Shown here: positions 38,429-58,910 of the stretch, piece after piece
Position numbering within the stretch: position 1 is the first letter of the stretch
How the letters are laid out: the number at the start of each line of letters is the position of its first letter
Source: an uncultured Selenomonadales bacterium
GTDB lineage: Bacteria; Bacillota; Negativicutes; Acidaminococcales; Acidaminococcaceae
Assembly: GCA_900316935.1 (NCBI GenBank)
Contig: ONEW01000008.1
Location: 1,216 to 65,215 of the forward strand
Direction of reading: 5' to 3'
Length of the DNA: 64,000 bases
Position numbers and translations under genes: made by a program
The notes under the pieces: model-generated
Seen by the model: the letters and a program-made list of their open reading frames with translations, nothing else
What the model was told of the DNA's origin: nothing
Database searches by the model: none

Positions 38429-39652
38429 TCAGACGACCTGGAAGATGAAGAACTTCAAATAAAACGTTTCGGGCACGTTCCATAACACAGGGTGATCCGG
38501 TGCCTGTTGGCGCACTTCCACCTGACGGAGGGAGACGCCCGCTTCCTGCGCCGCGTCGCGCAGCATTTCGATGAACAGTTCCTCCGTCATGAAGTGGGAA
38601 CAGGAACAGGTGGCCAGGTAGCCGCCGCGGGGCAGCAGTTTCATGGCCTTCCGGTTGATGTCCTTGTAACCCCCCGTGGCATTGTGCACGGTCTTGCGCG
38701 ATTTTGTGAAGGCCGGCGGGTCAAGGATGATGAAGTCGTAGTCCCTGCAATGGGACGCCTCCAATTCGTCCAGCAAAGCGAAGACATCGGCCTGCCGCAC
38801 GTCCATGACATCAGCCACGCCGTTCTTTTCCGCGTTGGCCTTTGCCATTTTGCAGGCTTCGGCACTCACATCGACGGCGGTCACATGCGCCGCACCGCCT
38901 TTGGCCGCATTGAGGGCGAAGGACCCCGTATGGGTGAAACAGTCCAGGACGTGCTTGCCTCCGGCGATACGCGCCACAGACCGGCGGTTGTACTTCTGGT
39001 CCAGGAAGAAGCCCGTCTTCTGGCCGTTTTCCACGTCCACGTCGTACAAAATGCCGTTTTCGTCAATGGTCGTGATGCACGATGCCGGCACCGGCCCTCC
39101 CGCCAGGGGATACCACCCTTTCCCCTGTTCCAGCCCTTCCAGGACCCGGATTTTGACATCGTTGCGCTCGTAGATGCCGGACACGGTCTCGCCCATGTCC
39201 CGCAGGACTTTGACCATGAGCGGGAACAGGACATCTTTCCGCACCTCGATGCCCAGCGACAACGTCTGGGTCACGAGGATGTCGTTATAACGGTCCACCG
39301 TCAGTCCTGGGAACTGGTCCGCTTCGCCGAAGACGAGGCGGCAGCAGCGGAAATCTTTGCCAGGCATGACTGTGCGGCGGTAGGCGAAGGCGTACTGAAA
39401 GCGGCGTTCCCAAAAGGCGGAGTCAAACTTGTCGTTCGTGTTGCTGGACAGGATGCGGACGCGGATTTTGGAATGGTCGTTCACGAATCCCGTACCCAGG
39501 TATTTGCCTTTCTGGTTCACTACATCGACCAGGTCGCCGTTTTCATAGGTCCCTTCGACCTTCGTCACTTCTTCGCCATACACCCAGGGGTGGCCGGGAC
39601 GGACGGTCCGTTCGGCCTTCTTCGTGATGTAGAATTTCGGATAGGTGCGCAT
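38429..39652 (-). CDS. RlmI-family SAM-dependent rRNA methyltransferase (PUA domain)
   Basis: GHPWVY, GQKTGFFLDQ, LDCFTHTGSF, ILDPPAF, CSCS. Confidence 0.9.
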   Translation of the reverse strand: MRTYPKFYITKKAERTVRPGHPWVYGEEVTKVEGTYENGDLVDVVNQKGKYLGTGFVNDHSKIRVRILSSNTNDKFDSAFWERRFQYAFAYRRTVMPGKDFRCCRLVFGEADQFPGLTVDRYNDILVTQTLSLGIEVRKDVLFPLMVKVLRDMGETVSGIYERNDVKIRVLEGLEQGKGWYPLAGGPVPASCITTIDENGILYDVDVENGQKTGFFLDQKYNRRSVARIAGGKHVLDCFTHTGSFALNAAKGGAAHVTAVDVSAEACKMAKANAEKNGVADVMDVRQADVFALLDELEASHCRDYDFIILDPPAFTKSRKTVHNATGGYKDINRKAMKLLPRGGYLATCSCSHFMTEELFIEMLRDAAQEAGVSLRQVEVRQQAPDHPVLWNVPETFYLKFFIFQVV

Positions 39653-39661
39653 GGTTGCTCC

Positions 39662-40342
39662 TTAATGCTTCGCCGTATCGGCATCGGGCGGTTTCCCGCT
39701 GCCGTCGTTCATGAGGAACAGCAATCCGTCGTGGTACTGCTTCCAGAACGGAGCGAAGACTTCCTTCAGGATCTTGTCCGATATATCGCTGTTGACGGGC
39801 TCGGCAATCCCTTGGAAAATCAGGTTGAACCGATCCAGGAAGGCCTGCATGGCCAGGGTGTTGAAAATCCTGCCCATGGTGATTTCATCCAGGTGCAGGG
39901 GGATGAACCCGTCGTCCCGCAGGGCCTCGTAAGCCTTGGCGGCATCCACGCGCTTTTCCACCTGGTCCGCCACATTGCGGCGGATCAGGCTGTCTGCCAG
40001 TTCCTGCTGCCGCTCATTGACGATGCGGAAGCGCTGTTCCATATTTTCGCGTTGCAAATCCGTCAGATCGGCCCAGGCGGCGTTCTTTTCGTCGAAGGCT
40101 TGCTTCAGCAGGGCCAGCTCCTCGCGCATATAGTGATACAGGGCCAGTGAGCCTAAAGGCACCGAGTAACCCCGCAGGTGGAGGCGCTGGGGGACCAGCA
40201 GGTTCCCCTCCATCCGTTTGAGGCTCGCCGCAATATCCTTGACAGCCTCCTGGTCCTTCTTTTTCTGCATGAACTCGTTCAGGTAGCCCTTATGGCTCAA
40301 TGCCCGGACGATCTCCTGCGCATATTTTTCTGCCTGATGCAT
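39662..40342 (-). CDS. Hypothetical protein (helical)
   Basis: 226-aa ORF in the operon, RBS present, no motif recognised. Confidence 0.7.
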   Translation of the reverse strand: MHQAEKYAQEIVRALSHKGYLNEFMQKKKDQEAVKDIAASLKRMEGNLLVPQRLHLRGYSVPLGSLALYHYMREELALLKQAFDEKNAAWADLTDLQRENMEQRFRIVNERQQELADSLIRRNVADQVEKRVDAAKAYEALRDDGFIPLHLDEITMGRIFNTLAMQAFLDRFNLIFQGIAEPVNSDISDKILKEVFAPFWKQYHDGLLFLMNDGSGKPPDADTAKH

Positions 40343-40387
40343 GTCTCTAAAACCTTGCTTCCTTTTTAAATTTGTGCGCCACAGGCC

Positions 40388-40948
40388 TTATTTCAGCTTG
40401 TCATACTTGGCCTGCTCAATCTTGTAGACATCGTTCCCCTCGATGTCGATGCCCACGATGGCCGGGAAATCGACCACTTCGTAGCGGCGGATGGCTTCCG
40501 GTCCCAGATCTTCGTAGGCAATCATGGTCTCACTGCGGATGGACTGGGAGATGACCGCCGCCGTGCCGCCGATGGCGATGAAATAAACGGCATGGTGCTT
40601 TTTGCAGGCTTCCACAACGGCGTCATTGCGCAAGCCTTTGCCGATCATGCCTTTCATGCCCTGCTCAATCATGGTGGGCGTGTACTTGTCCATGCGGCCG
40701 CTCGTCGTCGGACCGGCACTGCCCACGATTTCACCAGGTTTGGCCGGCGTGGGGCCTACATAGTAGATGACCTGGTCCTGAACGTCGAAGGGCAGCTTTT
40801 CGCCGCGCTGCAGGGCTTCGTACATACGCTTGTGCGCAGCGTCGCGGGCCGTGTAGACAGGTCCCGTGATGCGCACGAAATCTCCGGCATGCAGGTCCTT
40901 CACGACCTCTTCCGTCAAAGGCGTCGTAATGTTCTTGATTTCAGCCAT
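40388..40948 (-). CDS. Fe-S hydro-lyase (fumarate/tartrate family) beta subunit
   Basis: TARDAAHKR, YVGPTP, GPTTSGRMD, IGKG. Confidence 0.92.
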   Translation of the reverse strand: MAEIKNITTPLTEEVVKDLHAGDFVRITGPVYTARDAAHKRMYEALQRGEKLPFDVQDQVIYYVGPTPAKPGEIVGSAGPTTSGRMDKYTPTMIEQGMKGMIGKGLRNDAVVEACKKHHAVYFIAIGGTAAVISQSIRSETMIAYEDLGPEAIRRYEVVDFPAIVGIDIEGNDVYKIEQAKYDKLK

Positions 40949-40964
40949 AATCCTTTCCCCCTTC

Positions 40965-41810
40965 TCAAAGTACCGCTTCCGCACGGCGCGCCGCATGGCA
41001 GTTGAAGATGACCGCGCAAGGCAGTCCGCCGATATGGGTCGGGGCGTATTCGATGTTCACGGCCAGGGCCGTCGTCGTGCCGCCCAGGCCGGCCGGGCCG
41101 ACACCGGTCCTATTGACCAGTTCCAGCAGTTTGTCTTCCAGTTCGGCATATTGCGGATTGGCGTTGTGTTCGCCAATGTTGCGGGCCAGAGCATATTTAG
41201 CCAGCTCCGTGGCCTTTTCCGCATTGCCGCCGACACCCACACCGACCGTAACGGGCGGGCAGGGGTTCGGGCCGGCCGTCTTGACGGCTTCCAGCACGAA
41301 GTTGATGACGCCGTTCAGTCCATCGGCCGGTTTCAGCATGCGCAGCTGGGACATGTTCTCGCTGCCACAGCCTTTCGGGAGGACGACGAGGCGCACCTTG
41401 TCGCCAGGCACGATGCGGCAGTGGATGATGGCCGGCGTGTTGTCCTTCGTGTTCTTGCGTTCGAAAACCGGGTCGTCCACGGACGATTTGCGCAGGTAGC
41501 CGTCGGTGTAGCCTTGGGCCACGCCCCTGTTGATGGCGTCCCACAGGTCGCCGCCCGTAAAGTGCACGTCCTGGCCGATATCGATGTAGACCACCGTCAG
41601 GCCGGTATCCTGGCACATGGGGACGGCTTTCTTCGTCGCCAGCCGGGCGTTTTCGATGATGGTGTCCAGAACTTGCCGTCCCAGCGGGGACTCTTCCTTC
41701 GTTTCCGCCTGTTCCAATTTGGACAGCACACTCGCCGGCAGGTAGTAGCACGAGTCAATGCAGCATTTGGCAACGGCATCGGTCACTTTTTTTACGTCGA
41801 TTTCACGCAT
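40965..41810 (-). CDS. Fe-S hydro-lyase (class I fumarase type) alpha subunit
   Basis: PMCQDTG, LRKSSV, KGCGSEN, NPCPP, HIGGLP, CHAAR. Confidence 0.92.
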   Translation of the reverse strand: MREIDVKKVTDAVAKCCIDSCYYLPASVLSKLEQAETKEESPLGRQVLDTIIENARLATKKAVPMCQDTGLTVVYIDIGQDVHFTGGDLWDAINRGVAQGYTDGYLRKSSVDDPVFERKNTKDNTPAIIHCRIVPGDKVRLVVLPKGCGSENMSQLRMLKPADGLNGVINFVLEAVKTAGPNPCPPVTVGVGVGGNAEKATELAKYALARNIGEHNANPQYAELEDKLLELVNRTGVGPAGLGGTTTALAVNIEYAPTHIGGLPCAVIFNCHAARRAEAVL

Positions 41811-41971
41811 GATCTGTTCCTCCTGTTCCGTCTCTTTTCTGAATCAAGGGAGCCTGGCTCCCGGATGGTCATTATTTATATTTTAATCTATTTGCCGCAA
41901 ATATGCAAAAACCCGCCGGAACCGGATCCGGCGGGTCGGTCTGCTGAAAAATCCGGGCAGCCGTCACCCGG

Positions 41972-43222
41972 TCATTCTTCCATGGGGACGCCGTTGACAC
42001 GCAGGTACGTGCTGCGACGGATTTCTTCGGGATCTCTCTGCTCGCGGGCCACCCCTGTGCCCATCGCCGCTTTGGCGACGGCAGCCGCGACCGCGGGAGC
42101 CACGCGCTTGTCAAAGGCGTTGGGGACGACGTAATCCTCCCGCAGCTCGTTTTCCGGAATCAGTTCGGCAATGGCATGGACGGCGGCCACCTTCATGGCT
42201 TCATTAATTTCGCGGGCCCGGACGTCGATGGCGCCACGGAACACGCCAGGGAACACGTTGACGTTGTTGACCTGGTTCGGCGTATCACTGCGGCCGGTGC
42301 CGGCCACTCTGGCTCCGGCGGCTTTCGCTTCGGCATAGCTGATTTCCGGTACCGGGTTGGCCATGGCAAAGACGACGGGGTCCTTGGCCATGGAACGGAT
42401 CATGTCCTGCGTAAAGGAACCGGGTGCGGACACACCGAGCAGGACATCGGCCCCCTTCACGATATCGGCCAGCCGGCCTTTGCGTCTTTCCTTGTTCGTC
42501 ACTTTGGACAGGGCTTCCTGCACGCGGTCCAGGGGACGGCCGTTGTTGTCGCAGCCTTCGTAGAGGGCGCCGTGGTGCAGCATGACGATGAGGTTTTCCG
42601 CCCCGGCGTCCACCAGCAGGCGGCCGATGGCCGTACCGGCGGCACCGGCACCGTTCAGAACGATCTTCGCCGTGCGGATGTCCTTCTTGACCAGACGCAG
42701 GGCGCCCATGACGGCGGATACGCAGGCAATGGCCGTACCGTGCTGGTCGTCGTGGAACACGGGGATTTCCAGTTCCTTCTTCAGTTCGTCTTCAATGTCG
42801 TAGCACTTCGGCGACTGGATGTCTTCCAGATTGATGCCGGCATAGTTGCCCTGCAGCGCCTTGACGATGACGACGAACTTGTCCTTGTCCGTCTCGTCGA
42901 TGCAGACGGGCACGGCGTCCACGGCACCGAAGCGTTTGAACAGGGCGGCCTTGCCTTCCATGACGGGCATGGCGGCACGGGCGCCGATCTTGCCGAGGCC
43001 CAGGACACGGGTGCCATCCGTGCAGATGGCGACCATGTTGCCGCGGCAGGTCAGGTCGAAGGAGCGGTCCGCCTCTTCCTTGATGGCGAGGCACGGAGCC
43101 GCTACGCCCGGCGTGTAAGCGACGGCCAGGTCATGGTCGTTCTCCAGGGGCACCTTGCCGTGTGTTTCAATCTTACCGTTGTATTTGAGGTGCAGCTGCA
43201 TCGATTCTTCGCGCAAATCCAT
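41972..43222 (-). CDS. NAD(P)-dependent malic enzyme
   Basis: AYTPGVA, DGTRVLGLG, PVMEGK, INLEDI, FHDDQHGTA, NGAGAAG, AMANPVPE. GGAGG RBS before ATG 43222. Confidence 0.94.
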   Translation of the reverse strand: MDLREESMQLHLKYNGKIETHGKVPLENDHDLAVAYTPGVAAPCLAIKEEADRSFDLTCRGNMVAICTDGTRVLGLGKIGARAAMPVMEGKAALFKRFGAVDAVPVCIDETDKDKFVVIVKALQGNYAGINLEDIQSPKCYDIEDELKKELEIPVFHDDQHGTAIACVSAVMGALRLVKKDIRTAKIVLNGAGAAGTAIGRLLVDAGAENLIVMLHHGALYEGCDNNGRPLDRVQEALSKVTNKERRKGRLADIVKGADVLLGVSAPGSFTQDMIRSMAKDPVVFAMANPVPEISYAEAKAAGARVAGTGRSDTPNQVNNVNVFPGVFRGAIDVRAREINEAMKVAAVHAIAELIPENELREDYVVPNAFDKRVAPAVAAAVAKAAMGTGVAREQRDPEEIRRSTYLRVNGVPMEE

Positions 43223-43250
43223 TTCTGTTTCCTCCTTCGGATAAAAAAAA

Positions 43251-43381
43251 TAGTAGCATAGAAGGGAATTAGTGTATGCTACTATTTTATACAATATATA
43301 GTTTAAATGCAAGACCCAGAATGTAAATATTTTGTGGAATCCCTTCGGGGCAAAATCGCGGGTCCGGAAATAGTGTATGCT
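43251..43381 (-). promoter_or_regulatory. Malic enzyme/fumarase promoter with repeated operator
   Basis: TTGCAT(43312)-N17-TAAAAT(43289). Inverted repeat TAGTAGCATA-N14-TATGCTACTA; TAGTGTATGCT at 43270 and 43371. Confidence 0.55.
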
Positions 43382-46221: not shown

Positions 46222-46284
46222 AGATACCTCCGTTCCCCTTTGCCGGGGTTATAGATTAACTATAATATTATATCAAAAAGATGT

Positions 46285-47019
46285 CTAAAAGTACACTGCC
46301 GGAAAGGGAAACCCGGCCGGTTCCACGGCCACCACCGTGAGACGGCCGCTGGCGACACGGAATTTCACCTCAAGACCGGCGAACCTGAAGCCGTACACCC
46401 GGTCCGGGTCATCCTGGTAATGGGGCCGCGGGTCCTCCCGCAGCACACCCAGCAGGGCATCCCGTTCCGCTTCCGGTACCTGCGCCAGCAGAGCGGGCGG
46501 GAACACCACTTCCAATTCCCGGAAGGGCGTCGTGTCCGTAAATCCGCCCGTTGCCTCGCTGTGGCTGTCCACGGCCGGCAGGTAGGGCTTGATGTCCAGA
46601 ATCGGCGTGCCGTCCATCAGGTCGATGCCGGACACATGGAGCACCGGTCCTTCGGCCGTATCCAGTTCGACCCGTTCCAGGCGCACGGACGAAAGGCCGA
46701 TGCCGTTCGGCCGGAATGGCGAACGCGTCGCAAAGACGCCCATGCGCACGTTGCCGCCCAGCCGGGGCGGACGCACCGTGGCCGCCCAGCGGGAGCGCCG
46801 TGCTTCCGAAAAGTACCAGATGAGCCACAGGTGGCTGTATCCCCCGATACCGCGCAGCGCTTCCGCCTGTGCGTATTCCTTCGTGAAGACAATGCGCCCC
46901 GTCAGCGCTGGCACGACTCCGCTCTGCCGGGGAATCCCGAACTTCGTCGGAAACGCTGTCCGGATATGGGCGATGGGATGCATGACGATGGCCTCCCCGT
47001 CCTGTCGTTTGAAATCCAT
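46285..47019 (-). CDS. tsaA: tRNA t6A37 N6-methyltransferase TrmO/TsaA
   Basis: KFGIPRQSG, VRPPRLGG, GVFATRSPFRPN, DGTPILDIKPY, C-terminal DPRPHY. Confidence 0.92.
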   Translation of the reverse strand: MDFKRQDGEAIVMHPIAHIRTAFPTKFGIPRQSGVVPALTGRIVFTKEYAQAEALRGIGGYSHLWLIWYFSEARRSRWAATVRPPRLGGNVRMGVFATRSPFRPNGIGLSSVRLERVELDTAEGPVLHVSGIDLMDGTPILDIKPYLPAVDSHSEATGGFTDTTPFRELEVVFPPALLAQVPEAERDALLGVLREDPRPHYQDDPDRVYGFRFAGLEVKFRVASGRLTVVAVEPAGFPFPAVYF

Positions 47020-47204
47020 ACGGTCTTCCCGCCTTTCCTTTGTATCTCCTGGTTTATTATAGCCTGTCCGCTGATTCTGCAAAAGGGTATTAATTGTATG
47101 GAAATTGCGAAAAAGTCGTCATAAATAGTTACATTTCATAAAAACTTCACAAACATTACCGTTTTTGAACACAATTAAAATCGCGGATAAGGTATAATAA
47201 AGCT

Positions 47205-47416
47205 GTCAAACGAAGTTATATCCCCAATAACCGTTTGACGTATCCCCAGGTAATTTTGTGGCAGCGATGTTCCCCTACGTCGTTGCCGGAAAAACAGAAT
47301 TACCGATTGTTCTTCAATCATCTCCCTTATCCTTATGCTTCCCCAGCATAAGGACCCCTAAACCGAGATCCCTGAAAAGGGCAAAAAACTCCGTGCTTCT
47401 CCGCACGGAGTTTTTT
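47205..47416 (+). ncRNA. Candidate structured sRNA with multiple UCCCC hairpin loops
   Basis: TATAAT at 47193-47198, five hairpins plus a terminator, UCCCC at 47221, 47243, 47271 and 47340. G-U pairs support the plus strand. Confidence 0.75.
47383..47416. terminator. Bidirectional intrinsic terminator
   Basis: AAAAAACTCCGTGC-TTCTCC-GCACGGAGTTTTTT. Confidence 0.88.
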
Positions 47417-47500
47417 GCGTTTCAGGACATTTTTATACACAAAAATACATCTACTAACCAAAAACAGGTATTTTTTGTACTTACAATTTAAAATCCATTC

Positions 47501-47529
47501 CAAGGCGCCCGCCGGCGCCTTGTTTTTTT
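47501..47529 (+). terminator. Second plus-strand intrinsic terminator
   Basis: CAAGGCGCC-CGCC-GGCGCCTTG-T7. Confidence 0.8.
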
Positions 47530-47544
47530 GCGCCGCCGCACGGC

Positions 47545-47970
47545 TCAGCGCGTTCCCAGATAGATGTTGCTGCGGGCCACGCTCAGGTGCAGCTGGCGTT
47601 CCGCGAGGTCCGTAATGCGTTCCGGCGTGCGCAGTTTTTCAACCTGCAGTTTGAGACGCGCGTTGTCGTTCATCAATCGGCTTTCCTGCATCTGCAGCGT
47701 CACGAGCTGGTTGCCGGTCCGGACCAGTGCGGCGCTGCGGACGATGGCACCGACATACAGGAGGCCGAGGATGGCCGCCAGGACGATCAGGTGGCGGCGC
47801 AGCAGCTTATAGCTGCGTCCCGGGTTGCGGTACGGGACGAAGACGCCCGCTTCCTTGTCCCACATGACCATCTGCCCGCTCCGCAGGTTCTGCCTGCGCA
47901 CTTTCAGGGCCGTATTGCCGTCTGTTCCCGGAAATTCCCGATACGGTGCCGCATTTCGTATGCCCGCCAT
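47545..47970 (-). CDS. FtsL/DivIC-like bitopic coiled-coil protein
   Basis: Basic N-terminus, one TM, heptad coiled coil (LQMQESRLMNDNARLKLQVEKL), FtsL-like RTPERITDLAERQLHL end. ATG 47970 (GTG 47976 alternative). Confidence 0.68.
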   Translation of the reverse strand: MAGIRNAAPYREFPGTDGNTALKVRRQNLRSGQMVMWDKEAGVFVPYRNPGRSYKLLRRHLIVLAAILGLLYVGAIVRSAALVRTGNQLVTLQMQESRLMNDNARLKLQVEKLRTPERITDLAERQLHLSVARSNIYLGTR

Positions 47971-47972
47971 TT

Positions 47973-48422
47973 TCACACCTCTTTCCTATGATTCCGATGC
48001 AGGCTCTGCACATACAGCTCCAGCCATTTCTGCACGAAGGCCAGCTCTGCCGGCTGCAGTTCCTTCAGGTCCGCGACCACGCGGAGCATGTCCGGGTTAT
48101 CCCCCAGCATATCCCGGGCCGCCTCGCCACGGGTCCGCCCGCACACCAGCCACTCCAGGTCATACCCCATGTTGCCGATGGCTTCAATCACATCGACAGG
48201 GACGCCGCTGTCGCCGTGTTCGATGGAGGAAATCTGCGACTGGGTCCGCGCTTCCGCACGGGGTCTGCCCAGGGCCTTGGCCAGCGCCAGCGCAAATTCG
48301 CCCTGGTTCAAGCCTTCGCTGAGCCGGACCTGCCGGATGCGGTCATGGATGGTTTCCCCCCGCGCGGGACCGGCCTTCCGCTTCCGTGCGGCGGAAGGGG
48401 CCTGTCTTTTCCTCGTAACCAT
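47973..48422 (-). CDS. XRE/Cro-C1-type HTH transcriptional regulator
   Basis: DRIRQVRLSEGLNQGEFA...TQSQISSIEHG...YDLEWLVCG. GAGGAGG RBS. Confidence 0.85.
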   Translation of the reverse strand: MVTRKRQAPSAARKRKAGPARGETIHDRIRQVRLSEGLNQGEFALALAKALGRPRAEARTQSQISSIEHGDSGVPVDVIEAIGNMGYDLEWLVCGRTRGEAARDMLGDNPDMLRVVADLKELQPAELAFVQKWLELYVQSLHRNHRKEV

Positions 48423-48696: not shown

Positions 48697-48771
48697 TGGT
48701 GCGCCTGAGAGGAATCGGACCTCCGCACCCGGTTCCGGAGACCGGTGCTCTATCCACTGAGCTACAGGCGC
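48697..48771 (-). tRNA. tRNA-Arg (anticodon CCG)
   Basis: GCGCCTG acceptor stem, TAGCTCAGTGGATAGAGC D-arm, CCGGT-CTCCGGA-ACCGG anticodon arm, T-arm GGAGGTCCGATTCCTCT, encoded CCA. Confidence 0.96.
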
Positions 48772-56502: not shown

Positions 56503-56669
56503 TTGCGGGCCGGCGGGGTCCGGCCGCCCGCCGCAGCGGAATTGCGGGAATTTTACAAAAAGTTTTACTCCGCGCGGCCGGATTATAGTATAATTTAAAC
56601 AGGATGCAACGTGTCACGGCGTCAGGCAAGGGACCCGGACACGTCCGGATCAGAAAGGAGAGGATCAGC

Positions 56670-57182
56670 TTGACCGAGAAGAGAGTCTATACGGAAGAAG
56701 AAATCGAAACATTGGCGGAAAAGGCGTCCCAAAACGCCATGGAACACTTCAAGCATGGCCTGAACTGTGGGGAATGCGTGCTGCAGGGCTTCCTGGACCT
56801 GGGCATTTCCGATTATCCGAAGGACATCGTCGCCCTCGTCTCCGGCATGGGCGGCGGCATGGGCTTCACACACCATACGTGCGGCGCCGTCAATGCAGGT
56901 CTCGTCGTCATCGGCAGTGAAAAGGGCCGCAGGAATCCCTATGCCAAACCGACCTTTGACGAACGTGTCGACGAGCTCCACCATCCCGGCACAGGCATTT
57001 ACCCCCGCCACGGCGCGTATGTAAGGGACTGCATCCGGGAATACGGCACCATCGAATGCCGCGACCTGTGCTTCCCCTTTGACGAATCGACCCCCGAAGG
57101 CAAAAAGGAACGGGCCCGCAACTGCAGGAAGATCATCGGATTCTGCACCAAGGCTGCCGTCCGGGCTGCCCTGAAACCCTGA
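56670..57182 (+). CDS. C-GCAxxG-C-C family putative redox protein
   Basis: NCGEC, GMGGGMG, CGAVNAG, CRDL, CRKI. RBS supports TTG 56670. Confidence 0.82.
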   Translation: MTEKRVYTEEEIETLAEKASQNAMEHFKHGLNCGECVLQGFLDLGISDYPKDIVALVSGMGGGMGFTHHTCGAVNAGLVVIGSEKGRRNPYAKPTFDERVDELHHPGTGIYPRHGAYVRDCIREYGTIECRDLCFPFDESTPEGKKERARNCRKIIGFCTKAAVRAALKP

Positions 57183-57212
57183 TCCCTATGGAACCGGAAA
57201 GCAGGTGACCCC

Positions 57213-58910
57213 ATGGCCAGCAAATACGTCATCATCGGCGGCGTCGCGGGCGGAGCGTCCGCGGCCGCCCGCCTGCGCCGTCTGGACGAGGCGGCGCATA
57301 TCGTCCTGTTCGAAAAAGGGCCCTATGTGTCCTTTTCCAACTGCAGCCTGCCCTACTACCTGAACCGGCTCGTGCCCGAAAGCGGCAGCCTGGTACTCAT
57401 GAATCCCGAACGGTTCCGGAAGCAGTACAACATCGACGCCCGCACGGAGCAGGAAGTGACCGCCATCAACCGGCAACGCCGGACCGTTTCGGTACGGAAC
57501 CTCCGCACGGGGGAAACCTACGAGGAACCGTATGAAAAACTGGTTCTGGCACCGGGCGGTACGCCTGTCCTGCCCCGCTCCATCGGCGGGTTGGACGGTC
57601 CCAACGTGTTCACCCTCCACACCGTACCCGATGTGGTGAAACTGGACGCCTGGCTGCGCGGCCGGAAAGTCCGGCGCGTCGTCATCGCCGGCGGCGGTTT
57701 CATCGGCTGCGAAGCAGCGGAGTGCCTGCGGGAAGCCGGGTTCGATGTGACCATCATCGAAGCGGCGGACCAGATTCTGGCGCCTTATGATTTCGATCTG
57801 GTCCAGATGCTCCACAAGGAACTGCTGGATCATGGCGTGCAGCTGATCCTGCAGGACGGCGTCCAGGCAATCACGGAAACGGAAGTCCTGCTGCAGAGCG
57901 GCCGCAAAGTACCCGCCGAAGCAGTCATCATGGCCATCGGCGTCAAACCGGACACCCGCCTGGCCCAGGCTGCCGGCCTCATCATCGGCACGACCGGCGG
58001 CATCAAGGTCGACGGGAATTTCCGCACGAACGACCCGGACATCTATGCCGCCGGCGATGCCATCGAGGTCCTGAACCGCCTGAACCACCGGCCCATGCGC
58101 CTCGCCCTCGCCTGGCCGGCCCAGATGGAGGCCCGCGCCGCAGCGGACGCCATCTGCGGCATCAGCCATGAACGGAAAGGGTTCCTGGGATCTTCCGTCG
58201 TGAAGGTCTTCGGCCTCTATGCGGCCCGCACGGGTCTGAACGAGAAAGAGGCTGCGGCCGCCGGGTTCGACTGGGACTACGCCTATGTGATCCCCCTGGA
58301 CAAAGTCGGTGTATTGCCGGGAGCGCGTCCCATCCACCTGAAAGTCCTCTTTGAAAAAGGGACGGGGCGCCTGCTGGGAGCCCAGTCCGTCGGGGCGGAA
58401 GGCGCTGTGCGCCGCATCCACGTGCTGGCTGCCCTGCTCGGCATGAACGGCACCCTGTCGGATCTGCGCGACGCCGAACTGTGCTACGCCCCCGTTACGG
58501 CGACCGCGAAGGACGCCGTCAATATGGCGGGCCTCGTGGGCCTGAACCTGCTCTACGGGCGCTTCCGTCAGGTCCACTTGACCGAAGTGCGGCGCCTTGT
58601 GGAAGAAAAAGCCTGCCTCCTCGACGTGCGCGAAGAAGGGGAATACGCCGCCGGCCACCTGCTCGGCGCCGTCAACCTGCCCCTGAGCCAGCTGCGGCAG
58701 CGCATGGGCGAAGTCCCCAAAGACCGTCCGGTCTATCTCCACTGCCGTTCCAGCCAGCGCAGCTACAACGCCGTCATGGCCCTGCAGAACAGCGGCTGGA
58801 CCAACGTGTACAATATCGCCGGTTCCTACCTGGCCATCTCCCTCTACGAAGCCATGCAGGAAAAACTCTACGGCAAGCCGAAGATTGTGACGGCCTATAA
58901 CTTCAAATGA
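57213..58910 (+). CDS. CoA-disulfide/persulfide reductase-like flavoprotein with a C-terminal rhodanese domain
   Basis: GGVAGG, SFSNCSLPYY (redox Cys), GGGFIG, YAAGD, YAP, DVRE...HCRSSQRSY. Confidence 0.88.
   Translation: MASKYVIIGGVAGGASAAARLRRLDEAAHIVLFEKGPYVSFSNCSLPYYLNRLVPESGSLVLMNPERFRKQYNIDARTEQEVTAINRQRRTVSVRNLRTGETYEEPYEKLVLAPGGTPVLPRSIGGLDGPNVFTLHTVPDVVKLDAWLRGRKVRRVVIAGGGFIGCEAAECLREAGFDVTIIEAADQILAPYDFDLVQMLHKELLDHGVQLILQDGVQAITETEVLLQSGRKVPAEAVIMAIGVKPDTRLAQAAGLIIGTTGGIKVDGNFRTNDPDIYAAGDAIEVLNRLNHRPMRLALAWPAQMEARAAADAICGISHERKGFLGSSVVKVFGLYAARTGLNEKEAAAAGFDWDYAYVIPLDKVGVLPGARPIHLKVLFEKGTGRLLGAQSVGAEGAVRRIHVLAALLGMNGTLSDLRDAELCYAPVTATAKDAVNMAGLVGLNLLYGRFRQVHLTEVRRLVEEKACLLDVREEGEYAAGHLLGAVNLPLSQLRQRMGEVPKDRPVYLHCRSSQRSYNAVMALQNSGWTNVYNIAGSYLAISLYEAMQEKLYGKPKIVTAYNFK

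Follow-up and report, generated by a model that had tools for sequence, protein, structure and literature searches.

In RsaE/RoxS, C-rich regions located in loops and linkers pair with G-rich Shine–Dalgarno sequences (PMC4409812). Each of the redundant UCCC motifs of LhrC can bind the G-rich ribosome-binding site (RBS) of a target, and one small RNA (sRNA) of this type may bind several mRNAs (PMC4132741). The conserved C-rich hairpin loops of 6C bind G-rich 5′ untranslated regions in a chaperone-free manner (PMC6486639). Such UCCC or C-rich-region sRNAs make up a functional kind and not a homology family. A different principle is followed by CsrB, RsmY and RsmZ, in which repeated GGA in hairpin loops titrates CsrA/RsmA. 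The present analysis concerns positions 47205–47416 of a 64-kilobase (kb) stretch of DNA (64,000 nucleotides (nt) of contig ONEW01000008.1, hereafter the window) from an uncultured Selenomonadales bacterium. This segment is confirmed as a real gene for a structured non-coding RNA of high abundance in vivo. By analogy with the C-rich systems, the reading we lean towards, at somewhat better than even confidence, is that of a stand-alone trans-acting sRNA gene of ~212 nt, which would belong to the UCCC/C-rich-region kind and pair with G-rich RBSs.

The evidence for a discrete and abundant transcript was provided by contigs of public metatranscriptomes mapped to the window; their depth is a crude measure of abundance and the contigs carry no direction. 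A discrete contig at the locus was observed in 12 RNA runs from 8 studies, 10 of the runs being of bovine gut or rumen and 2 of mixed culture. The depth of the RNA was 1657 in run X28 (flanks 9–22), 1104 in X30 (flanks ~7), 264 in X27 (flanks 9–10), 135 in X26 (flanks 0) and 78 in X40 (flanks ~4), i.e., ~18–160 times that of the flanking genes where these were also represented. For X29, X31, X32, X33, X35, X52 and X53, the RNA was the only assembled part of the locus. All the RNA contigs were confined to 47215–47396, within the predicted 47205–47416; depth was zero over the promoter region (up to 47196) and over 47415–47495, with the rise in the 47197–47223 bin. In rumen metatranscriptomes, the RNA ranks among the most abundant transcripts that these bacteria make, and this very high abundance suggests that it probably controls something central. 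Succiniclasticum, the name carried by relatives of the neighbouring DivIC-like protein (as Succiniclasticum sp.), is a core rumen genus; it makes propionate from succinate, and propionate is the main precursor of glucose in cattle. The closest trmO was that of "uncultured Selenomonadales RUG113", and the DNA runs containing the locus are bovine gut or rumen metagenomes and mixed cultures.

The ends of the fragments were found in nearly all cases at places predicted to be single-stranded. At the right-hand side, adapter follows directly after 47367 (47367/47368) in X26, X30 and X40, which belong to three studies, and the contigs stop at 47366–47368 in X28, X32, X33, X35, X52 and X53. Ends at 47366–47368 were thus observed in at least nine runs of at least six studies, while X31 extends to 47384 and X29 to 47396. 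Position 47367 is either the last hexamer or priming site ahead of the very stable P5 and terminator, or a processing site giving a core species of ~160 nt. The left ends fall at 47215/47216 in six runs and at 47221, 47222, 47225, 47226, 47233 and 47240 in others. Double-stranded complementary DNA (cDNA) libraries lose roughly 10 nt at the 5′ end, and a left end at 47215 is therefore what the plus-strand model gives with a 5′ end at 47205.

Two minus-strand genes, 520 nt apart, enclose the RNA, namely trmO (46285–47022; Pfam TrmO_N/TrmO_C), which is divergent from it, and a DivIC/FtsL-like gene (47545–47976), which is convergent with it. The minimum-free-energy fold of 47205–47416 consists of P1–P5 and the terminator at −86.5 kcal/mol, with z = −11.25 against 200 dinucleotide shuffles, none of which (0/200) folds equally well; in three lineages the plus-strand z-scores are −11.25, −8.88 and −8.34. 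The predicted 5′ end is a G at 47205, 7 nt past the −10 box. P1 (47205–47239; 8 base pairs (bp), an AA bulge, then 5 bp) presents C-rich motif 1 in its loop AUCCCCA (47220–47226). After the linker GUAUCCCCA (47240–47248), which holds a copy of UCCCC, comes the long bipartite helix P2 (47249–47304; 11+11 bp with a 6-nt bulge), supported by the fold and by covariation, which presents C-rich motif 2 as UCCCCU within UUCCCCUA, the invariant loop being GUUCCCCUAC (47269–47278). The weak P3 (47305–47319; stem GAUUG/CAAUC, loop UUCUU) lies inside an invariant 23-nt block, CGAUUGUUCUUCAAUCAUCUCCC (47304–47326), which in addition contains C-rich motif 3 (UCUCCC). P4 (47330–47354; fold and covariation) is a 10-bp hairpin with the loop UCCCC at 47340–47344 (C-rich motif 4). 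It is followed by the single-stranded CCCCUAAACCGAGAU (47355–47369), which consists of C-rich motif 5 and the invariant AAACCGAGAU; the GAGAU of this segment may pair with AUCUC at 47320–47324 according to the fold model. P5 (47370–47381; fold and covariation) is a 4-bp hairpin, CCCU/AGGG, closed by the GNRA tetraloop GAAA. The intrinsic terminator (47383–47416) is composed of CUCCGUGC, the loop UUCUCC, GCACGGAG and U6. The original prediction had listed the TATAAT box, G47205, P1–P5 and the terminator; all of its sequence statements hold, and the computed fold has the same architecture.

Four distinct versions of the RNA were found, each placed between the DivIC-like gene and trmO, so that synteny is kept. 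The first is that of the window and is identical to L106; the second, RUG113-type (L001, L099, L101), is 95% identical to the window RNA; the third (L089/L090-type) and the fourth (L081/L087/L095-type) are 74% and 71% identical, respectively. Comparison of the window with RUG113 revealed that the flanking intergenic DNA is visibly more diverged than the RNA, and the RNA is still 71–74% identical where the neighbouring DivIC-like protein is only 54–56% identical. Within contigs of organisms at least 95% alike, which came from four further public runs whose library type is unrecorded, there were no variants inside the RNA and several just outside it.

RNAalifold on the four-sequence alignment recovered P2, P3, P4, P5, the terminator and the possible AUCUC/GAGAU helix. 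For the 57 consensus pairs, 94.7% of the cells are paired and 16 pairs show double compensatory changes. Sliding the partners by 1–3 columns left 1–5 such pairs, and 0/500 column shuffles reached the observed values. The double changes are distributed over P4 (4/8 aligned pairs, with 100% of the cells paired), P5 (3/4), the inner and outer parts of P2 (4/10 and 3/11, hence 7/21 overall) and the terminator (2/14). P1 has a wholly different stem sequence in L089 and L081, with the hairpin and the loop UCCCC retained, and the P5 loop on the plus strand reads GAAA, GAGA and GAAA across the lineages. The expectation that homologues would keep the stems through compensatory changes, together with the C-rich loops, was therefore borne out, and the structure is under selection in a pattern that fits a functional RNA. 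One detail of the original prediction was lost in the comparison, namely the UCCCC copy at 47243 in the linker GUAUCCCCA, which only the window and RUG113 (there with an extra C) possess and which is deleted in the two distant lineages, L089 and L081.

Most of the searches added nothing to this set. Starting from trmO, with one genome per GTDB species, 80 loci were obtained; the RNA was present only in RUG113, and the rest were Clostridia and others with unrelated contexts. Five more trmO relatives were non-syntenic, too short or identical to the window. Protein and profile searches with the DivIC-like gene gave six clusters, two of which yielded L081 and L089, while the sixth was an FtsL from a dcw cluster that lacks the RNA. 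When two invariant blocks were used as exact patterns to scan JGI metagenome contigs, only the known variants and two chance matches in coding DNA came back. No paralogue of the RNA was found in the 64-kb window, nor did nhmmer find another locus over all the sequences gathered. On present evidence the family is narrow and comprises Succiniclasticum-like Negativicutes as far as seen, other Negativicutes genomes not having been scanned directly.

The unpaired parts are the most constrained parts of the RNA in the alignment. As originally claimed, there are four exact copies of TCCCC (47221, 47243, 47271 and 47340) against 0.28 expected from the window, a ~14-fold excess (Poisson P = 2e-4), and elsewhere in the 64 kb, whichever strand is read, no 212-nt stretch reaches that number. 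A fifth CCCC is located at 47355, and GGGG and GGGGA both occur 0 times on the plus strand of the element. Five C-runs, all UUCCCC-like, are conserved in position, three in hairpin loops and two in single-stranded linkers. Their probability of being unpaired in all four lineages is 0.93–1.0 for four of the runs, the P1 loop run having 0.98–1.0, and 0.68–0.97 for UCUCCC. The P2 loop GUUCCCCUAC is identical in 4/4 lineages, the loops CUUCCCC of P4 and UCCCC of P1 are conserved, and AAACCGAGAU is invariant with CCCC just ahead of it, while the C-run of the terminator loop is found in RUG113 only. The block CGAUUGUUCUUCAAUCAUCUCCC is identical in three lineages and has two changes in L081. It contains AUCAUCUCCCUUA, which we take to resemble the anti-Shine–Dalgarno 3′ tail of 16S rRNA in its general form. 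The block at 47304–47326 is the likely main seed.

Upstream of the gene, a −10 box, TATAAT, is located at 47193–47198 on the plus strand. It stands 6–7 nt before the first base of P1 in 4/4 lineages although P1 itself has been rewritten; its sequence is TATAAT in three of them and TTTAAT/TAATAT in L089. No recognisable −35 was seen upstream of it. The alignments reveal a conserved upstream block at 47134–47180 (plus strand), made of direct TT(T/C)A(T/C)A repeats ~11–12 nt apart followed by GTTnTGRAACAC. The repeats read TTTCAT (47134–47139) and TTCACA (47146–47151) in the window, and GTTCACAAATA GTTCACAGACA GTTCGG in L089. The distance from the block to the −10 is 47 nt in the window and RUG113 and 37 nt in L089 and L081, one helical turn apart. 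The conserved direct repeats and the consensus −10 without a −35 therefore suggest an activator: judged from its sequence, the promoter looks like an activator-dependent one of the response-regulator type, with the upstream block as a putative activator site. TTCACAA is the complement of TTGTGAA, the half-site of ResD and Rex, and the RsaE/RoxS promoter has a ResD/SrrA site while LhrC is induced through a two-component system. When ResD/SrrA (Rex) control was considered for the present promoter, the direct TTCACA(A) repeats were present without a palindrome, and the TTCACA direct-repeat motif is not enriched elsewhere in the 64-kb window.

Taken together, these features would fit the following mechanism. 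The RNA would be transcribed from its own promoter, having a consensus −10, no −35 and upstream direct repeats, under the drive of an activator, and transcription would stop at the canonical intrinsic terminator. The product would fold as P1, P2, P4, P5 and the terminator and thereby display five C-rich motifs together with the invariant anti-Shine–Dalgarno-like stretch (CAAUCAUCUCCC). The exposed C-runs could nucleate pairing with G-rich RBSs of several mRNAs, and such pairing would block initiation, alter mRNA decay, or both; the redundancy of the seeds would permit many targets or several contacts per target. The pairing mechanism and all targets are inferred, as are the precise ends and the need for an activator. 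The 64-kb window does contain fumarase, malic enzyme and dicarboxylate symporter genes with G-rich RBSs. The Shine–Dalgarno sequences in the window are mostly of the GGAGG type, with GGGGA near ~7/58 crude gene starts. The five candidate targets originally put forward were correctly named (RapZ, a class III aminotransferase, a phosphopentomutase-like protein, a C_GCAxxG_C_C protein and fumarase beta), but their targeting gained no support, GGGGA near the start codon being all that speaks for it.

The strand on which the RNA is made had to be considered separately, and the plus strand is the probable one, with good though not full confidence, mainly on the sequence evidence. The −10 box lies at a fixed distance in all the lineages, and the canonical terminator has, in L089 and L081, a tail of U5 and GU when read on the plus strand, whereas the minus strand offers no more than U4. 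A second, plus-only terminator stands at 47501–47522, and there is no other plus-strand gene or transcript upstream for it to stop. L089 has no room for a minus-strand promoter, and the P5 loop is a GNRA loop on the plus strand. It had been argued that the G–U pairs of P2 fix the plus orientation; the argument holds, its weight being modest at 16 G–U against 6 A–C cells over the four sequences. The minus-strand z-scores are −5.6, −5.1 and −4.8, compared with −11.3, −8.9 and −8.3 for the plus strand. Adapter junctions provided additional evidence. In X28, the end of a plus-strand gene (CoA-disulfide-reductase-like, 57213–58910) is a read-2-type junction and the minus-strand malic enzyme gene has a read-1-type junction at its 5′ end, as expected of a stranded library prepared with deoxyuridine triphosphate (dUTP). 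The RNA is oriented like the plus gene in X28 and X30, which belong to one study.

Several observations weigh against the reading of the RNA as a plus-strand base-pairing sRNA. The RNA is oriented like the minus-strand malic enzyme gene in X40, at two junctions and in conflict with X28, and like the minus-strand trmO in X27; if the libraries are stranded, these orientations would place the RNA on the minus strand. In X26, from the study of X27, a loose end stops exactly where two adapters diverge, which suggests that this study was unstranded. The adapter orientation at malic enzyme is opposite in X40 and X28, while that at the sRNA is the same (41983, 43228, 43258, 58908); either the two libraries have opposite stranded chemistries and disagree on the strand of the sRNA, or X40 is unstranded. 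By a rough likelihood estimate the adapter evidence favours the plus strand only modestly. The predicted discrete plus-strand transcript of ~210 nt is established as a discrete and abundant transcript (12 runs), with adapter orientations that conflict between libraries as to its strand.

On the same side stand observations on the ends, the fold and the targets. The 5′ and 3′ ends are predicted ones; ~99% of the fragments and depth in X28 stop at 47367, so that P5 and the terminator are hardly covered, and a processed form may be the abundant species. The four variants amount to three deep lineages only, and the covariation statistics are correspondingly thin. P3, predicted as a helix, did not survive as one: it has no covariation, and two substitutions in L081 break it and fit another register. 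The AUCUC/GAGAU helix shows no covariation either, both sides being invariant and covariation hence uninformative. The invariant block pairs better with the 58 translation-initiation regions than with intragenic 45-mers (p = 3e-12, duplex energies), a preference that is expected of any CUCC-containing sequence and denotes compatibility, not targeting. The strongest complementarity within the window that could be compared between lineages is that of the thioesterase RBS, AGGGGAAC, an 8-nt complement of the P2 loop; it is not conserved, another GC hairpin being present in L081 and L089, and cross-lineage comparison of the other syntenic gene starts revealed no conserved complementarity.

The conflicting orientations lead to an alternative that we regard as unlikely, namely a minus-strand product, in the form of a stable structured fragment that lies between the DivIC-like gene and trmO, in their orientation, and arises when read-through RNA of the DivIC-like operon is processed. 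Its 5′ end would lie near 47367 and its 3′ end would be the complement of P1 with a U-rich tail, and it would show GGGGA/GGA loop motifs, resembling a CsrA sponge, in place of the C-runs. Such a product is suggested by the orientation of X40 with the minus-strand malic enzyme gene at both junctions and of X27 with the minus-strand trmO. The end at 47367 is constant and the left ends are variable, as a run-off 5′ end would be expected to give, an X28 contig links 47339–47447 with the DivIC-like gene, and the P1 complement of L081 with GAUUGGUUUU scores as terminator-like. Nevertheless, no promoter-like sequence was seen before 47367, and in L089 the distance from the DivIC stop to the hairpin is only 56 nt. 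The product would have to pass a strong hairpin and U-tract and yet exceed the depth of its parent mRNA ~18–160 times. Moreover, X28, the only run in which both adapter orientations match the gene strands, says plus, and the −10 box, the GNRA loop, the G–U excess, the z-scores and the second plus-only terminator all favour that strand.

Likewise doubtful, whichever strand is considered, is a multivalent decoy, which would capture a C-run-binding regulator if made from the plus strand or titrate a CsrA-type protein, through six GGA-containing GGGGA/GGGAG motifs, if made from the minus strand. Its plus-strand form, by analogy an RNA in which the UUCCCC loops titrate an RNA-binding protein or sponge G-rich RNA, is slightly more doubtful when taken alone. 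The near-identical UUCCCC in three hairpin loops and two linkers, conserved and exposed, is what such a decoy would display; the very high abundance relative to mRNAs suits stoichiometric titration, and P2 and P4 look like long scaffold helices that mainly present loops. No global RNA-binding protein with specificity for C-runs is known to us from Bacillota or Negativicutes, however, and none is encoded in the window. An invariant single-stranded block of 23 nt with anti-Shine–Dalgarno character is more typical of a pairing seed, and proven base-pairing sRNAs also have redundant C-rich motifs (PMC4132741, PMC4409812). If true, the decoy would give the Bacillota/Negativicutes lineage its first CsrB-like sponge, and only such a sponge would represent a new kind of mechanism.

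It is very improbable that the locus is a structured non-regulatory element, for example a transcription-insulating or terminator-rich spacer, set amid convergent and divergent genes, whose transcript accumulates through nuclease resistance. One bidirectional terminator lies within it and a second terminator after it, and high contig depth can mean stability and not function; but an insulator needs no conserved loops, whereas here the loops and single-stranded blocks are conserved above the helices (10 and 23 nt invariant), and the element has its own conserved promoter architecture. A small protein (a 38-amino-acid TTG or 77-amino-acid GTG open reading frame on the plus strand, or a 48-amino-acid ATG frame at 47321–47175 on the minus strand) has practically no chance of being the product, for although the frames exist and the minus-strand one begins inside the invariant block (AUGAUUGAAGAA; AUGAUUGAAGAACAAUCG) right after GGGAG, no spacer separates this Shine–Dalgarno-like GGGAG from the AUG, all the frames are broken (by a 1-nt insertion in RUG113, and by a 10-nt deletion and further indels in L089 and L081), L089 and L081 lack the only in-frame ATG (47266), and the substitutions compensate one another in pairs and are not synonymous. 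A cis-regulatory leader on the plus strand was rejected because no plus-strand gene lies downstream of the element.

The surroundings of the gene for the putative plus-strand sRNA provided further observations. The terminator has an A6 tract before it and U6 after it and is thus bidirectional in the window genome, where, from its sequence, it can probably also stop the convergent DivIC-like mRNA. The X28 contig that joins 47339–47447 to the DivIC-like gene has a depth of 22 and represents either DivIC-like mRNA entering the terminator or ~1% read-through of the sRNA. The second terminator-like hairpin, CAAGGCGCCCGCCGGCGCCTTG followed by T7 with A7 before it (47501–47528, hairpin 47501–47522; plus strand only), sits 85 nt past the sRNA terminator and is kept in RUG113. 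It is probably a backstop protecting the convergent DivIC-like gene against read-through from a strong sRNA promoter. On the minus strand, the invariant block resembles an RBS and a start codon. A protein of 149 amino acids without a Pfam match (47973–48422, minus strand) overlaps the start of the DivIC-like gene from upstream in all the lineages. The trmO gene looks mobile or mosaic: the DNA of L106 upstream of trmO equals that of the window, yet its TrmO protein reaches only 75% identity. In L109 (377–1045), a TrmO of 90% identity is found in unrelated surroundings, beside a gene for an rve-family integrase/transposase, and close relatives of the window TrmO are mostly from Clostridia, not Negativicutes. 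The spacer between trmO and the thioesterase gene (46222–46284 on the minus strand of the window; L081:4607–4666; L089:4586–4645) contains a small CCCC...GGGG hairpin directly ahead of the thioesterase RBS in all the lineages, its sequence differing in each, which may be an attenuator or an mRNA-stability element. The operon of the C_GCAxxG_C_C gene and the CoA-disulfide-reductase-like gene (Pyr_redox_2 and rhodanese; 56640–58910, plus strand) has a depth of ~317 in X28 and is the top-expressed protein-coding stretch of that run within the part examined (30001–64000), and the fumarase/malic enzyme cluster (38925–43258) has ~175. The window has a G+C content of 59%.

Comparison with the described families was made at several levels. 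Rfam 15 at gathering threshold gave no family at the RNA locus, the sole family in the 64 kb being a tRNA gene (48700–48771, minus strand; 65.6 bits). Permissive scans, with E ≤ 10 in 47050–47560 of the window and E ≤ 5 in the L089 and L081 homologues, returned a single sub-threshold match, to FsrA (RF02273) at 47331–47415 on the plus strand (24.4 bits, E = 0.0076, gathering score 80). This match was absent in L089 and L081, where only terminator-type chance matches were obtained. The proposed novelty thus stands as far as Rfam is concerned, and full-text searches, in agreement with the claim that none has been described in Negativicutes, found, in the papers covered, no account of an sRNA of Succiniclasticum or of a C-rich sRNA or other regulatory RNA in Negativicutes. 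Membership of individual families was rejected on the following grounds: RsaE/RoxS (RF01820) has no covariance-model match in the window, at the locus or in the L089 and L081 homologues; 6C (RF01066) is not among the matches in the window, locus or homologues; FsrA scores 24.4 bits, far under 80, and is absent in the homologues; an LhrC-type RNA is contradicted by the single copy in the 64-kb window, the length of 212 nt and a terminator-loop C-run found in RUG113 alone; and a GGA sponge of the CsrB/RsmZ type on the plus strand lacks its motifs there (GGGG/GGGGA 0 times), these being on the minus strand only. As in the UCCC kind, the RNA appears as an independent transcription unit, probably on the plus strand, with discrete contigs and a conserved −10 and terminator, and it has five C-rich motifs in loops and linkers where at least two characterize the kind.

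The finding would extend the C-rich-seed design of sRNAs, known from Bacilli and Actinobacteria, to a diderm branch of Bacillota. The compact family, with its four-variant structure alignment, is usable for an Rfam entry, and it can serve annotation of rumen and gut metatranscriptomes, in which the RNA now figures as an unassigned contig of high depth.

Among the known systems, RsaE/RoxS is similar in being a stand-alone Bacillota sRNA with several C-rich regions in loops and linkers and with its own promoter and upstream response-regulator-type site (here a putative one, the direct TTCACA repeats), and there are hints of a processed form in both. It differs in having no sequence or covariance-model similarity; moreover, the present RNA is 212 nt long against about 100–115 nt, carries five conserved motifs along with two long scaffold helices, and belongs to a strict anaerobe of the Negativicutes, unlike the RNAs of Staphylococcus and Bacillus. 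LhrC of Listeria monocytogenes shares the redundant UCCC in a hairpin loop, a segment that is single-stranded and the loop of the terminator, but it is multicopy, about 100 nt long and has three UCCC sites, whereas the RNA described here is longer, is single-copy in the 64 kb, does not conserve its terminator-loop C-run and has no Rfam match. 6C likewise has conserved C-rich hairpin loops, though it belongs to Actinobacteria and has two C-loops against five motifs here, with no model match. The iron-sparing sRNAs FsrA and IsrR resemble it in the C-rich single-stranded regions followed by a terminator, and an Fe–S fumarase with a GGGGGAA RBS is present in the window; a Fur-box-like palindrome was not seen upstream, by eye only. 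CsrB, RsmY and RsmZ are similar as abundant RNAs whose helices show a short motif many times in hairpin loops, but their motif is GGA and the likeness applies only to the disfavoured minus-strand reading. By analogy, therefore, the RNA would represent a new family of a known functional kind, larger and more multivalent than its analogues.

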